DNA of 64,000 nucleotides from Dehalococcoidia bacterium. Lineage in GTDB: Bacteria > Chloroflexota > Dehalococcoidia > Lucifugimonadales > UBA3495. Positions 28,174 through 32,810 of the stretch are shown in pieces (within the stretch, counting starts at the first letter, position 1; each line of letters begins with the position of its first letter). The position numbers and the translations under genes were made by a program. Location of the stretch: assembly GCA_965115955.1 (NCBI GenBank), contig OZ220473.1:2662410-2726409 (forward strand), given 5' to 3'. Under the pieces are notes generated by a model, which was not told the origin of the DNA, made no database searches, and saw only the letters and a program-made list of their open reading frames with translations.

Positions 28174-28575
28174 GTGGTAACTTACGAAGTTTTTTTCGGA
28201 GCCTCATCGTCGTTCCTGGTGGTAGGAGTTGGAGCCTTCCTCTGGATACTGTCTGAATTCCGGGCAATGCGCCGTGAATTTCGGGAAGAAAACCAGCGGA
28301 CGCGGGAAGAGCTTCGCGAAGAAAATCAGCGGATGCGGGAAGAGTTTCGGGAAGAAAACCAGCGGATGCGGGAAGAGTTTCGGGAAGAAAACCAGCGGAT
28401 GCGGGAAGAGTTTCGGGAAGAAAACCAGCGGACTCGGGAGGAACTGCGCGAAGAAATCCGCGCAAATGCACAGCGAATATTGGAAGCCCTTTACTTCCAC
28501 CGCCATGACACCGACACTGGCGAGGCGGTCTTCTACCCGCCCACATCCACAACACCGGCGCCGCAAGCGGATTAA
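28174..28575 (+). CDS. membrane-anchored protein with six 11-residue charged repeats (REEFREENQRM)
   Basis: 133 aa with a GTG start. One TM helix (FFGASSSFLVVGVGAFLWIL), then the repeat array, then the tail 'ILEALYFHRHDTDTGEAVFYPP'. The repeats are in-frame multiples of 33 bp. Confidence 0.6.
   Translation: MVTYEVFFGASSSFLVVGVGAFLWILSEFRAMRREFREENQRTREELREENQRMREEFREENQRMREEFREENQRMREEFREENQRTREELREEIRANAQRILEALYFHRHDTDTGEAVFYPPTSTTPAPQAD
28270..28467 (+). repeat. 33-bp tandem repeat x6 (coding)
   Basis: Units start at 28270, 28303, 28336, 28369, 28402 and 28435. Units 3 and 4 are identical and unit 5 differs by 2 nt. Consensus CGGGAAGAGTTTCGGGAAGAAAACCAGCGGATG. Confidence 0.95.
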
Positions 28576-28586
28576 GGAGCGATGCT

Positions 28587-29642
28587 ATGACCACGCTGAA
28601 CCCGCCGAAACTGACTGCAATAGAACTGGGGAAAATAGAGCGGGTTGATGACTTGAGGGTGGCTTGGCCCAGAGAAGCGCAAGATTTCACGCCATGGCTG
28701 GCCGAGAACATCGAAGAGCTGGGCGAAGCATTGGGCATGGAACTGGTATCTGAGGGAATGGAAGTCCCGGTAGGCTCCTTCGCGCTGGATGTTCTGGCTA
28801 CCGCTACCGACGTTTCTCAGAACCAGACTGTAGTCATAGAAAATCAACTGGGAACCACAGATCACGACCATCTGGGCAAGCTGTTAACCTACGCCGCCGG
28901 TAAAACCGCTGATGTAATTGTATGGCTGGCAAAGGAGTTTCGAGGCGAACATCGTCAAGCATTAGACTGGCTTAATCAGCGTACTGGAGAGGACTGCCAG
29001 TTCTTCGGCGTAGCTGTGGAGTTATGGAAGATTGGAGATTCTCCGCTCGCCCCGTACTTCAATTTGGTCTCTGCTCCTAACGAATGGAGCAAGCTTCTAA
29101 AAACAGCCCATCCACTCACTGAAGAGGATGAGATGAATTCCGAGTTTCGCAGGTTGCTCATCGAACGTTTCAAACAGGAAGACCCTCTCCTTATGGCCAG
29201 AAAGAGAACTACAGGAACCGGCGGAATAGTAAAAGCCAGATGGCTGTATATAAAATATCCGGTGCCCGAAGTCAAGCATCACCTTAGTTATGTTGCCGTT
29301 TGGCCTAATGGAGATCTTGGCTTCCAGTTCGTATCAGATATAAGAGGCAGAGATGGACTGGGCTGGACTCGAAGGGTTTTCGAGGATCTCGAAAAGCGCA
29401 AAGGGGAGATCGAGGAAAAGGTTCGAGGAGCCGGGCCATCGGAACGGTTTGAGTGGGAACCTGATTGGAAAAAGCAAGGATTCCGAGTAGGTATTTATCG
29501 CAATGACAACGTGTTCCAGTATCCTGATTCTTGGGACGAATACCACGATTGGATAGTTGAAAAGCTCCGGTTATTTCAAGAACATATCGAGCCTCTTCTT
29601 ATGAAGGAATTTTCAGAGCATGAGCAGCGAACCCGTGAGTGA
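28587..29642 (+). CDS. PD-(D/E)xK nuclease-fold protein with DUF4268-like C-terminus
   Basis: 351 aa. 'E..VPVGSFALDVLA...TVVIENQLGTTDHDHLGKLLTYAAG..ADVIVWLA..FR.EHRQALDWLN' is the pattern I associate with the nuclease-like N-domain of DUF4268 proteins. GC is visibly lower (about 50%) than in the flanks. Confidence 0.7.
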   Translation: MTTLNPPKLTAIELGKIERVDDLRVAWPREAQDFTPWLAENIEELGEALGMELVSEGMEVPVGSFALDVLATATDVSQNQTVVIENQLGTTDHDHLGKLLTYAAGKTADVIVWLAKEFRGEHRQALDWLNQRTGEDCQFFGVAVELWKIGDSPLAPYFNLVSAPNEWSKLLKTAHPLTEEDEMNSEFRRLLIERFKQEDPLLMARKRTTGTGGIVKARWLYIKYPVPEVKHHLSYVAVWPNGDLGFQFVSDIRGRDGLGWTRRVFEDLEKRKGEIEEKVRGAGPSERFEWEPDWKKQGFRVGIYRNDNVFQYPDSWDEYHDWIVEKLRLFQEHIEPLLMKEFSEHEQRTRE

Positions 29643-30693
29643 AATCGGCGAAACTACCACCGTCCAATGGGACAGCGCCCTTGAAGCCATCGAGCGGTGC
29701 TACGAGCTGGGCTGGACCGACGGGCTGCCCGTAGTCCCACCCACCGAGGCCCGCGTCGCGGAATTCATCGAGCGCACGGGGCGCCCGCCGGGAGAAGTCG
29801 TCGGCGAACTGCCTGAGCGCCGCCGCGAGATCACCGTAAGCAAGGTGGCGGCCAACGCAGTGATGGCCGGCTGCCTGCCGGATTATATGCCCGTGGTGCT
29901 GACGGCAACCGAGGCCATGCTCGACCCAGTGTTCAACCTGGTTGGGCCATCGTCCAGCATGGGCGGATCGGCAATACTGACCATCGTCAACGGCCCTGTC
30001 GTGCGGGACCTGAACATCAACGCCCGCAACAACCTGTTCGGGCCTGGGAACCGCGCCAACGCCACCATAGGGAGGGCCGTCAGGCTCATTCTGATGAACG
30101 CCTGCGCCGCCATCCCCGGAGTGTTCGACCGCAGCGTTATCGGGCATCCGGGCAAGTACACCTACTGCATCGCCGAGGCGGAAATCGAAACGCACTGGAC
30201 GCCTCTGCACGTCGAGCGCGGCCTGCGCCCAGATCAGAGCGCAGTGACCGTGTTCGCCGGAGAGTCGCCCCGGCAGGTGCGGGCCGTGGGGCGACCGGAG
30301 GCCATACTCTATGCCATCTCAGACGTTGCCTCTACCTTGGGCACCAGCATGTCTACCTCCGGTTCCGTGGGCGAGACGGGAACGGGCGTGCGGCAGGGTC
30401 AGATTGTTGTAACAATCGCCGGAAACTCAGGCCTGTGGCAGAACTGGACCAAAGAACAGGTACGGGACTTCATCTTCCAGAGGGCGCGCCGGACAATGGC
30501 GGAACTAAAGCAGGCTATGGTCCTGGCAGGCGATGCAGGCCCCGGAGATGATGCTGAATCGGTTCCGCTGATTCCCGACCCATCGGACATACTCCTGGTG
30601 TTTGCTGGCGGTGAGGAATCCAATATGTCGTCGGTGATCCCTAGCTGGGGGCCGAAAGTGGCCTGCACGGCCGTTACAAAAGCCATAAACTGA
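29620..30693 (+). CDS. conserved-looking hypothetical protein (no domain recognised)
   Basis: 357 aa with host-like GC. The ATG overlaps the upstream gene by 23 nt. Motifs seen: 'GWTDGLPVVPPT', 'GPSSSMGGSAILTIVNGP', 'NATIGRAVRLILMN'. Confidence 0.7.
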   Translation: MSSEPVSEIGETTTVQWDSALEAIERCYELGWTDGLPVVPPTEARVAEFIERTGRPPGEVVGELPERRREITVSKVAANAVMAGCLPDYMPVVLTATEAMLDPVFNLVGPSSSMGGSAILTIVNGPVVRDLNINARNNLFGPGNRANATIGRAVRLILMNACAAIPGVFDRSVIGHPGKYTYCIAEAEIETHWTPLHVERGLRPDQSAVTVFAGESPRQVRAVGRPEAILYAISDVASTLGTSMSTSGSVGETGTGVRQGQIVVTIAGNSGLWQNWTKEQVRDFIFQRARRTMAELKQAMVLAGDAGPGDDAESVPLIPDPSDILLVFAGGEESNMSSVIPSWGPKVACTAVTKAIN

Positions 30694-30751
30694 AGGAAAT
30701 TCCTTACCCAAAGGTTTGGTTTCTCGGAAATTCAATCTGACGGAGATAGCT

Positions 30752-31294
30752 ATGGCACAGGCAAATGAGCACACCTTGATAAATCCGATAACGCAGCCGG
30801 TAATTGCTCCGTTCAATGGCGCGCCGCGCCTGGCAAGCCTGGCCGGAACCAGACTGGGGCTGATAGACGACAGCAAGCGCAATGCCGACGTTCTGCTGGA
30901 AGAACTGGCGAACCTGTTGCGCACTCGCTACGAAATTTCCACGGTCAAGTGGCTGCGCAAGCCCAGTGCTTCCCGCCCCGCCGACCCGGACGCCCTGAGG
31001 GAGCTGGTTGAGGAGTGCGATTCCGTAATCGTCGCCATAGGAGATTGAGGGTCATGCAGCGCGTGCAGTGTGCACGACGGAATCCATATCGAGAACGCCG
31101 GCATCCCATCGGCCACCATTTGCACTGACCGCTTCGTTCCTACTGCCACCGGCATGGCCCGGATGTGGGGCGCCCCGGACTATCCGACCATCTACACCGA
31201 GCATCCCATCGAGAACCTCGACCGGGACGCGCTCCGGGCCCGCGCCGAGCGGCTTGCTCCGCTGGTCGTGCAGGTGCTGACCGGCGAAGGCTAG
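30752..31294 (+). CDS. probable selenoprotein with UGSCSAC motif (TGA 31046-31048 read as Sec)
   Basis: ORFs 30716..31048 and 31070..31294 share one frame, with no stop other than the TGA between them. ATG 30752 has a GGAGA SD 5 nt upstream. The joined product is 180 aa: '...SVIVAIGD-U-GSCSACSVHDGIHIENAGIP...'. Confidence 0.65.
31062..31076 (+). promoter_or_regulatory. candidate SECIS-like hairpin (CGTGCA-GTG-TGCACG)
   Basis: 6-bp GC-rich stem starting 13 nt after the in-frame TGA. It is short, and no extended lower stem was found. Confidence 0.35.
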
Positions 31295-31327
31295 GCTGCT
31301 AAGAGCGAACTCTTTTCACGATTTGCG

Positions 31328-31368
31328 CCTGAGGGGTTTCCTTCGACAGACTCAGGAAACCCCTCAGG
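31328..31368. terminator. 14-bp perfect hairpin between convergent genes
   Basis: CCTGAGGGGTTTCC (31328-31341) pairs with GGAAACCCCTCAGG (31355-31368), 13-nt loop. Sits between the + gene ending at 31294 and the - gene ending at 31374. Confidence 0.5.
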
Positions 31369-31373
31369 TGGGT

Positions 31374-31571
31374 TTATGCCGACTGACTACGCAATTCCGG
31401 GGGCAGCAGGTTAGGTATAGTGTCCTCAATTGGATAGGATTCATCGCAGGCGGCGCAGAACAGAGACCCAGTTACAACCTCATCAGCGTCCTCTTCCTCT
31501 ATCTTCAGTTCAAGCTCGCCCTTGCATACCGGACAGACCAGTATTTCCATCAGGTCTTTCTTCAAAGCCAA
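31374..31571 (-). CDS. Trm112-family small zinc-ribbon protein
   Basis: 65 aa. '[14 protein letters not shown]...[21 protein letters not shown]' is the Trm112/UPF0434 pattern. Confidence 0.85.
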
Positions 31572-31595
31572 TCCCCTCTGTCATTGACGCATTCG

Positions 31596-32078
31596 TCAGG
31601 CCGTCAACGCGTCTTCTATAAGCGCGTCCAGCACGTCAGAAAGGCCAATAACTACGAACCCGATTACCAGAAGCGTTATCGGACTGGTCAGGCTGCGAAG
31701 GATGCGCCGCGCCCGGGAAGCTCCGGATTCCGGTTGCTCCGAGTCTCCCCGCCGGACGAGGCGCGCCACGTAGAACATGTAGAGCGCCAGAGCGATCTTT
31801 ACCCCCAGGACTATCGCGTACGGCACAGTCGCGGCATCTCCGGTCAGTCGCGCCACCGAGAGAATCGCGCCGGTCAGCAGCAGTACCGCTATGGCTGTAG
31901 TTACCAGCCCTCGGAACTCATCCCGAATCGCCTCGTTTGTCTCCTGCGGCAACCCCTGGGAACGCCTGATGGCTGGACGCAGCACCATCAGGTAGAACAC
32001 GCCGCCGCCGACCCACGCCACAGCAGCGAGCGCATGCCCCCATCTAATAATCACCAGAATCCAGTCTAAAACACTCAT
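31596..32078 (-). CDS. integral membrane protein (CopD-like, tentative)
   Basis: 160 aa with about 4 TM helices. N-terminal 'RWGHALAAVAWVGGGVFY' resembles CopD-type proteins. Confidence 0.55.
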   Translation of the reverse strand: MSVLDWILVIIRWGHALAAVAWVGGGVFYLMVLRPAIRRSQGLPQETNEAIRDEFRGLVTTAIAVLLLTGAILSVARLTGDAATVPYAIVLGVKIALALYMFYVARLVRRGDSEQPESGASRARRILRSLTSPITLLVIGFVVIGLSDVLDALIEDALTA

Positions 32079-32128
32079 CTGTACCAGAAACGGGCTATCT
32101 GGGCCTGTGTTCGGCCATTGCGGAATTT

Positions 32129-32632
32129 CTATCCGCCCGTCAACTCGCCGACTATGCTCTTGATGCGCTCGGCATCGAGGGCGCTAACGTAAGTGGCTGT
32201 CACCCTTCCCTGTTTATCCACAAACACCGTGGTTGGGTAATACTCTATGCCGTAAGCGGCGGAAATGACCTCCTGCCGGTCTGTGGCAAAGCCGAAAGTC
32301 AGCCCCAGGTCGGCCACGAACTCCCGTGCAGACTGTTCGCTGTCGAGCCCCCTGGGAACAAACAGCCCAAGGAAACGGACGGGTTCGCCTGCCATGTCAT
32401 CCCACGCTTGCTGGAACTCCGGCATTTCCTCGCGGCAGGGCGCGCAACTGGGATACCAGAAATTGATCACCACCACATTGCCGGTATACTGCTCCGACAG
32501 CCGAAATCTGCCGCCATCGAACAGCTCAACCTCAAAATCCTTTGCCGATTCCCAGCCGCAAGCCGACATAAGGGCCAGCAATAGCGCAATGGCGAGAAGA
32601 TTCAGACGGGCGGCATTGAGGCGTAAAAACAT
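32129..32632 (-). CDS. TlpA/ResA-like thiol:disulfide oxidoreductase (lipoprotein)
   Basis: CxxC 'WYPSCAPC' in a thioredoxin fold. Start placed at ATG 32632 (MFLRLNAARLNLLAIALLLALMSACG, lipobox). The track ORF extends to 32671. Confidence 0.85.
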   Translation of the reverse strand: MFLRLNAARLNLLAIALLLALMSACGWESAKDFEVELFDGGRFRLSEQYTGNVVVINFWYPSCAPCREEMPEFQQAWDDMAGEPVRFLGLFVPRGLDSEQSAREFVADLGLTFGFATDRQEVISAAYGIEYYPTTVFVDKQGRVTATYVSALDAERIKSIVGELTGG

Positions 32633-32810
32633 GGGCTGATACGAGCAAACTCCAGGCAAGGCCGATTTCAAGCCACCGCATTCTATATGGGAGACAATAC
32701 CCTTTCAACGCCGATTGAACCGCTCTTCTTGACTGGACGGAACAAGCAAGTACAATCGTGGGAGATTGGCATCCTGCAATATATGTGACAATACTTGTGG
32801 AGGAAGGGCG

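Follow-up and report, generated by a model that had tools for sequence, protein, structure and literature searches.

The 357-residue partner of the UGSC selenoprotein in a Dehalococcoidia genome: genetic linkage, conserved residues and a candidate thioredoxin-linked reductase

The UGSC-containing protein is a major ocean selenoprotein without known function (PMC1976440, PMC2398784, PMC13188914) and was still termed uncharacterised in a 2026 review (PMC13188914). The window (the whole stretch of DNA analysed, 64,000 nucleotides (nt) of a Dehalococcoidia bacterium, assembly GCA_965115955.1, contig OZ220473.1, positions 2,662,410 to 2,726,409 of the forward strand) carries gene A (29620..30693, + strand), an open reading frame (ORF) with ATG start for a protein of 357 amino acids (aa), followed by gene B (30752..31294, + strand), which encodes a UGSC family selenoprotein of 180 aa with selenocysteine (Sec) at codon 99 in the motif GD-U-GSC-SAC. 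The two genes had been put forward in an earlier note on this DNA as a possible two-gene redox module, and the idea was supported by conserved synteny of A and UGSC, by fusions of the two and by co-occurring thioredoxin genes (trxA; trxB for the reductase). The evidence set out below inclines towards a two-subunit, thioredoxin-linked thiol/selenol reductase, with A as its catalytic and substrate-binding subunit.

Linkage of gene A and UGSC in bacteria and archaea

Gene neighbourhoods were compared in both search directions, and synteny of A and UGSC was conserved in each. UGSC with an in-frame TGA was located directly 3' of gene A, on the same strand, in 80/80 SAR202/Dehalococcoidia species genomes (gaps 14–794 nt). 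Distant relatives (40–48% identity to A; contig labels including Tectimicrobiota and Burkholderiales) had a Sec-interrupted UGSC immediately adjoining in ten cases out of ten, the remaining neighbours being different at every locus; one close SAR202 relative, looked up besides these ten, was arranged likewise, and at one distant locus the order was reversed, UGSC being followed by a tandem A–A protein. At annotated plasmid loci of cultured bacteria and haloarchaea UGSC was adjacent to A or fused with it in 10 of 11, the eleventh being the A gene of the haloarchaeon Haladaptatus, which has no adjacent UGSC. From the opposite side, 80 Cys-type metagenome loci were collected with UGSC as the seed; 75 of them have at least 158 nt of upstream flank (the other five, ≤ 101 nt), and a member of the A family was found directly 5' in all 75 (gaps 15–90 nt).

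The two parts also occur in one polypeptide. The 44 longest proteins among the representatives of the 150 best 50%-identity clusters of A were scanned, and a UGSC part was found before or after A in 23 of them, so that fusions number at least 23; in many, gene calling had stopped at the Sec codon. With one fusion as the query, 45 full-length UGSC–A proteins were recovered. The window copies of A and UGSC are separate genes. Across bacteria and archaea the genetic link of the two is essentially obligate. Two outcomes named beforehand as speaking against the module, absence of synteny elsewhere and assignment of A to an unrelated, self-sufficient family, were both looked for; neither was encountered.

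A fusion of UGSC to a domain called 'Unknown_1' was noted by Zhang and Gladyshev in 2008 in a few aquatic organisms and in ocean metagenomes (PMC2398784), so the A–UGSC link may not be entirely new; that paper contains no report of an obligate two-gene module, of its breadth or of a thioredoxin link. The A family shares with 'Unknown_1' the trait of being fused to UGSC in one polypeptide, and the two are probably the same family. No gene A motifs were found in the supplementary text of that paper.

Two variations on the arrangement were recorded. Between A and UGSC, a SAR202 subclade has the gene of a Cys-rich DUF1326 protein of 202 aa (E = 7.9e-39; locus L034, 7068–7676), and 15 other SAR202 loci (L032–L070) have an A–UGSC spacer of ~660–800 nt; the inserted protein may serve the pair as a third component, or as an accessory related to metals or thiols. 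On plasmid pFER4 of Paracoccus ferrooxidans (locus L104, 9359–10813) a Sec-type UGSC–A pair has selB, which encodes the elongation factor specific for Sec, ~3 kb away, and genes for DsrE, TusA and cysteine desulfurase on the side opposite selB.

The two protein families, their conserved residues and structure models

Gene B, previously a selenoprotein candidate, proved to be a bona fide UGSC family member by its profile matches, its retained TGA and a hairpin resembling a selenocysteine insertion sequence (SECIS). With TGA read as Sec or Cys, it matched Pfam PF24696 (E = 1.3e-57, 195.2 bits; cutoff 25) and NCBIfam NF041046, 'UGSC family (seleno)protein' (157.9 bits; cutoff 125). The in-frame TGA read as Sec (31046..31048, + strand) is kept in 80/80 related SAR202/Dehalococcoidia genomes. 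It is followed by the SECIS-like element (31061..31078, + strand): the six codons GCG TGC AGT GTG CAC GAC, 13–32 nt past the TGA, are invariant at their wobble positions in 81/81 SAR202 sequences, in which the flanking wobble sites vary freely, and the hairpin CGUGCA-GUG-UGCACG (31062–31076) within them has the form that a bacterial SECIS should take. The single-sequence fold of the region was no better than shuffles (z +0.95), and the SECIS call rests instead on the wobble-site invariance.

The best-conserved position of the UGSC motif is the first (U/C); variants comprise CGSC, CGNC and a large monothiol CGTS group, in which the second Cys is replaced by Ser. The spacing U-x-x-C-x-x-C is present in gene B as U-GS-C-SA-C, and its third Cys varies across the family (CGSCTSW and CGTSTS were found). 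The epithet 'GrdB-like', given earlier to the gene B product, held for a weak similarity at the Sec site (E = 2.3e-5) and failed as a family assignment: 23.5 bits were obtained against TIGR01917 (cutoff 602), 18 against TIGR01918 (cutoff 65) and 13.6 against TIGR04483 (cutoff 300).

Gene A was verified as a real ORF, with GWTDGLPVVPPT at residues 31–42, GPSSSMGGSAILTIVNGP at 109–126 and NATIGRAVRLILMN at 147–160 of its product, and the failure to place it in any named family was borne out: Pfam and NCBIfam gave 0 matches at E ≤ 1; 46 diverse family members searched against Pfam at E ≤ 10 gave no recurrent weak match, scattered single ones only; sequence and profile searches of PDB gave 0 matches at E ≤ 10. 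Homologues are numerous, at least 8000 in a word-indexed search; when 1.84 billion cluster representatives were searched exhaustively with HMMER, at least 3302 clusters (50% identity) were matched at E ≤ 1e-10 and 1060 at E ≤ 1e-30. Among the matches listed, the closest homologue has E = 2.9e-211 and the nearest relatives are metagenome-assembled genomes of SAR202/Dehalococcoidia; named distant relatives are on contigs labelled NC10/Methylomirabilales, Tectimicrobiota, Burkholderiales, Betaproteobacteria, Bacteroidetes and Chloroflexota. Distant members are annotated 'hypothetical protein', and fusion proteins take their name from the UGSC part. Members were also located on plasmids or megaplasmids of cultured Arthrobacter, Paracoccus, Variovorax, Roseovarius, Vibrio, Sporomusa and several haloarchaea.

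In a residue census of 275 members, C85 (in NAVMAGC) was present in 266/272 sequences and C183 in 257/271; further near-invariant residues are D34-G35-x-P37 (the TDGLP motif), N79, G125-P126, R145, N147, R152, E186 and W193. The A domain is duplicated in tandem A–A proteins of ~640–740 aa (P0123, P0129, P0131, P0134, P0136, P0158, P0271); C85 and the invariant polar residues are kept in both repeats, and an aliphatic residue, mostly V, generally stands at position 183, Cys being present in both repeats in 1 of 9 examined (P0271). Such duplications hint that the gene A protein may normally be dimeric. Fusions of Vibrio, Sporomusa, P0159 and P0198 have no Cys at the UGSC site, yet their A domain retains C85 and C183; those of Vibrio europaeus (L097, 5323–7008) and Sporomusa termitida (L098, 5317–7041) are encoded near aconitase X plus DUF126, and enolase, and may be a redox-independent offshoot of the family. 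Because C85 is near-universal and is kept beside a Cys-less UGSC, A would be the catalytic subunit, with C85 as the key residue, and UGSC a dedicated Sec/Cys relay; UGSC as the sole catalytic centre would explain the cysteine data less well. The evidence of these alignments leans towards a 357-aa protein bearing its own catalytic cysteine rather than merely presenting a substrate; it may also be the substrate-handling partner for which it was taken earlier.

The AlphaFold2 model of the gene A protein was a confident one (predicted local distance difference test, pLDDT, 88; predicted template-modelling score, pTM, 0.89). In a Foldseek search of this model against PDB the only match below E 1e-3 was class I fumarate hydratase (E = 7.3e-4); that fold was rejected for A (template-modelling score, TM, 0.24/0.17; root-mean-square deviation, rmsd, 17.5 Å; only C85 and C183 conserved). 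Fe-S hydro-lyases use three Cys as cluster ligands. Toblerone-fold cyclic amide hydrolases (AtzD/barbiturase; E = 0.013–0.25, TM 0.18–0.25, no Pfam match) were likewise rejected, as was a match to FtsZ, whose low TM disqualified it as evidence of homology. Fumarate hydratase and the Toblerone hydrolases, the best Foldseek matches, suggest similar alpha/beta building blocks, but with TM 0.17–0.25, rmsd 10–17 Å and no sequence similarity there is no global fold match, and the predicted fold of A was treated as one with no close relative among solved structures.

A natural UGSC–A fusion (P0408, 536 aa) was co-folded with AlphaFold2 and gave one body (pLDDT 92.4, pTM 0.92) in which low confidence was confined to the linker; the model supports a fixed packing of the UGSC and A parts. 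Its UGSC domain resembles a flavodoxin-like alpha/beta/alpha fold (lumazine synthase, TMt 0.52–0.55; CheY-like receivers, TMt 0.47–0.57), with the Cys/Sec motif at a helix N-terminus after a beta-strand. The thioredoxin fold proposed for UGSC in 2008 was rejected, no thioredoxin-fold protein being present in the best 50 Foldseek matches; no GrdB/PrdB structures surfaced in the Foldseek search of the fusion model.

Redox context, candidate mechanism and alternatives

Thioredoxin-system genes accompany the pair in several lineages. The orders trxB-trxA-A-UGSC in Arthrobacter sp. ERGS1:01 (UGSC with an extra NifU-like CxxC domain), A-UGSC-trxB in Roseovarius sp. THAF8, trxB-TctC-SDR-A-UGSC in Variovorax sp. 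SRS16 and UGSC-A-TrxR-like flavoprotein in Haloterrigena turkmenica (TIGR01292, E = 1.2e-68) were found. A TrxB homologue lies ≤ 4 kb downstream in 7 of the 31 UGSC-seeded metagenome loci having at least 3 kb of downstream flank. A conserved betaproteobacteria-like operon (L111, 239–7947) reads MCC-alpha-like biotin carboxylase-A-UGSC-CoA-transferase III-TctC-TrxB, and akin to it are the orders A-UGSC-(TrxA)-CaiB-TrxB of L112, L114, L127, L128, L132 and L138. Elsewhere in the A family the fusion partner is FeThRed_B, the catalytic domain of ferredoxin-thioredoxin reductase, or a CxxC redoxin domain of AhpC/TSA type. These redox-module fusions strengthen the redox reading, as does the presence of trxB, with or without trxA, within or next to the operon of several lineages.

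Hints of the substrate come from other recurrent neighbours: coenzyme A (CoA)-transferase family III, family I CoA-transferase, enoyl-CoA hydratase, acyl-CoA dehydrogenase, acyl-CoA synthetase, CoA ester lyase, MCC-alpha-like biotin carboxylase and LysR regulators, together with uptake systems of carboxylate type (TctC, TRAP DctP, TAXI) and ABC transporters; in the window a CaiB-like CoA-transferase lies 7 kb from the A–B pair. The neighbourhoods suggest that the substrate may be a small organic acid or its CoA ester.

In the mechanism proposed, A would be the larger, catalytic and substrate-binding subunit of one thiol/selenol-dependent oxidoreductase shared with UGSC. Its pocket would be lined by the near-invariant polar residues D34, N79, R145, N147, R152, E186 and H197 around an essential C85, assisted in most lineages by C183. 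UGSC would pack against A and present the couple Sec99-x-x-Cys102, so that each turnover would end with an oxidised bond (Se-S or S-S) that links UGSC to A or lies inside UGSC. In many lineages NAD(P)H would supply the electrons that reduce this bond again, by way of thioredoxin reductase and thioredoxin; a fused ferredoxin-thioredoxin-reductase-like domain would be the other route. The substrate would probably be a small organic acid or CoA thioester, the module being plugged into varied catabolic operons. Such a scheme resembles thioredoxin-dependent Cys reductases, among them those fused to a redoxin (MsrA/MsrB-Trx, arsenate reductase, PAPS reductase), in its near-universal Cys with a less conserved second Cys, in the fusion of A to interchangeable CxxC/UxxC modules and in the trxB and trxA neighbours; it differs from them in having no sequence or fold relation and in a UGSC part that is predicted to be flavodoxin-like rather than of thioredoxin fold.

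Several observations weigh against the reductase, whose A–UGSC complex is deduced from pTM and the fusions. Most A–UGSC contexts have no nearby trxB/trxA, and none was found within the window. In fusions whose UGSC part is monothiol (CGTS) or Cys-less, a redox couple borne by UGSC cannot be a requirement; the Haladaptatus A gene stands apart from any UGSC. As to the substrate, recurrence of CoA enzymes is weak evidence because paralogues are abundant in these genomes, and the neighbourhoods are too varied to name a pathway.

The nearest functional analogy is to the selenoprotein reductases of the Grd/Prd type, in which membership fails on defining features. As in GrdB + GrdE and PrdB + PrdA, the gene of a small U-x-x-C(-x-x-C) selenoprotein adjoins that of a larger partner; several lineages, though not most contexts, have genes of the thioredoxin system within or alongside the A–UGSC operon, and the transporters imply carboxylate-type substrates. 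Chemistry of the Stickland type, with UGSC as a miniature PrdB/GrdB whose Sec would attack a substrate carbon, A binding and activating the substrate as GrdE/PrdA do and thioredoxin resolving the selenide-sulfide, is nevertheless considered unlikely. It would account for the U-x-x-C-x-x-C motif, for the weak but specific likeness of UGSC residues 83–161 to the Sec region of GrdB/PrdB (E = 2.3e-5 to 0.03), for the Sec/Cys position being the best-kept Cys of UGSC while the second gives way to Ser in the CGTS group, for carboxylate-type transporters nearby, and for trxB-trxA directly 5' of the pair in Arthrobacter; trxB-trxA also accompany grd operons. However, A has a near-invariant cysteine of its own, no detectable similarity to GrdE/PrdA and no sign of a pyruvoyl-forming cleavage site, and at E ≤ 10 neither A nor any of 45 diverse relatives was matched by a Pfam model of the glycine-reductase family; genes for GrdA, GrdC, GrdD or PrdC–E were absent from the Pfam-annotated neighbours of 10 diverse loci and from the annotated plasmid loci; UGSC falls far under the GrdB and PrdB cutoffs; there are lineages with a Cys-less UGSC while A keeps C85; and fusion of A to AhpC/TSA or FeThRed_B is easier to reconcile with a relay than with a catalytic Sec in an exact position. 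Unlike the Stickland fermenters with Grd/Prd systems, the hosts of A–UGSC come from SAR202, soil and marine Proteobacteria, Actinomycetota and haloarchaea, the latter being mostly aerobes.

Those same Cys-less fusions (Vibrio, Sporomusa, P0159, P0198), which retain all A active-site residues, would also suit a redox-neutral A, that is, an isomerase, racemase or hydro-lyase with C85/C183 as acid/base or nucleophile and UGSC as a structural or regulatory part whose Sec/Cys motif modulates it; the sole Foldseek match below 1e-3, to class I fumarate hydratase, and the aconitase X and enolase genes next to the copies of Vibrio and Sporomusa point the same way. It is quite improbable, given that 80/80 SAR202 species keep the costly Sec together with a conserved SECIS, that trxB/trxA stand in or beside the operon and FTR-B and AhpC/TSA domains are fused to A, and that the hydratase match (TM 0.24, rmsd 17.5 Å) is no real fold match. 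That Cys and Sec serve as metal or iron-sulfur ligands, A and UGSC being a metalloenzyme or a cluster- or metal-handling pair, is held to be very improbable: UxxCxxC spacing resembles cluster binding, a NifU-like domain is fused to the Arthrobacter UGSC and FeThRed_B to other members, the Cys-rich DUF1326 protein lies between A and UGSC in the SAR202 subclade, and a weak Foldseek match leads to an Fe-S hydro-lyase; but just two Cys are conserved in A, tandem forms can do without C183, the last Cys of UxxCxxC varies across the family (CGSCTSW, CGTSTS), and thioredoxin reductase in the operon points to disulfide chemistry. Least credible by far is incidental adjacency of two proteins acting independently, for which the Haladaptatus A gene can be cited; the pairing spans phyla and domains in unrelated neighbourhoods, was recovered in both search directions, and is joined by recurrent fusions.

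Setting of the pair in the window and implications

The two-subunit reductase favoured above would, in the window, be encoded by a compact pair of genes. Gene A is preceded by a Shine-Dalgarno-like AAGGA (29604..29608, + strand; a sequence reading), 11 nt 5' of its ATG, and is separated from gene B by a spacer of 58 nt (30694..30751, + strand) with GGAG at 30742–30745, 6 nt 5' of the gene B ATG at 30752. The spacing given earlier was reproduced, and a consensus scan gave no terminator-like + strand site within it; the same kind of scan revealed no sigma-70-like promoter 5' of the pair. The guanine-plus-cytosine (GC) content of gene A, which had been called host-like, is indeed so (0.63–0.66 vs ~0.6 in the rest of the neighbourhood); that of the ORF directly 5' of it is 0.47–0.53. 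The strong hairpin reported 3' of gene B is real (stem 31326..31370, between convergent genes; ΔG −36.6 kcal/mol, z = −6.0, equalled by 0/200 shuffles). It has no U-tract and was not scored as an intrinsic terminator by consensus scan; despite the missing U-tract it is a probable terminator closing the A–B pair.

Neighbouring ORFs were as follows. A 351-aa ORF (28587–29642, + strand) overlaps the start of gene A by 23 nt; its sole domain match is a weak C-terminal DUF4268 (E = 2.8e-4), and it looks like a strain-specific insertion because it is missing at the equivalent position in a close relative (L081). A 133-aa ORF (28174–28575, + strand) has a hydrophobic N-terminus followed by ~7 tandem 11-residue charged repeats (REEFREENQRM-like). 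Convergent to A–B (31374–32671, − strand) are genes for a Trm112-like zinc-ribbon protein, a CopD-like membrane protein and a TlpA/AhpC-TSA-type periplasmic redoxin (WYPSCAPC); this three-gene arrangement is conserved in L081, and no link of it to A–UGSC was established.

In comparison with the literature retrieved, the near-obligate cross-domain pairing, the thioredoxin-reductase link, the near-universal Cys of the partner and the list of cultured Sec-independent hosts are new. The gene A family is very large yet has neither a Pfam or NCBIfam model nor a structural relative in PDB, which amounts to a sizeable annotation gap. Roseovarius sp. THAF8, Arthrobacter sp. ERGS1:01, Variovorax sp. SRS16 and Haloterrigena turkmenica are cultured, Sec-independent hosts in which the pair can be put to the test. 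With UGSC almost never occurring without its 357-aa partner, and with thioredoxin reductase often encoded alongside, a 'selenoprotein of unknown function' becomes a defined, testable two-subunit enzyme. It is conceivable, though rather doubtful, that A and UGSC represent a new enzyme class with a fold absent from PDB, a widespread and largely aerobic counterpart of the Stickland reductases in which a Sec/Cys relay and thioredoxin would drive reductive bond cleavage of CoA-activated or free organic acids; if true, this would account for the place of UGSC among the most abundant selenoproteins of ocean metagenomes and for its retention in SAR202.

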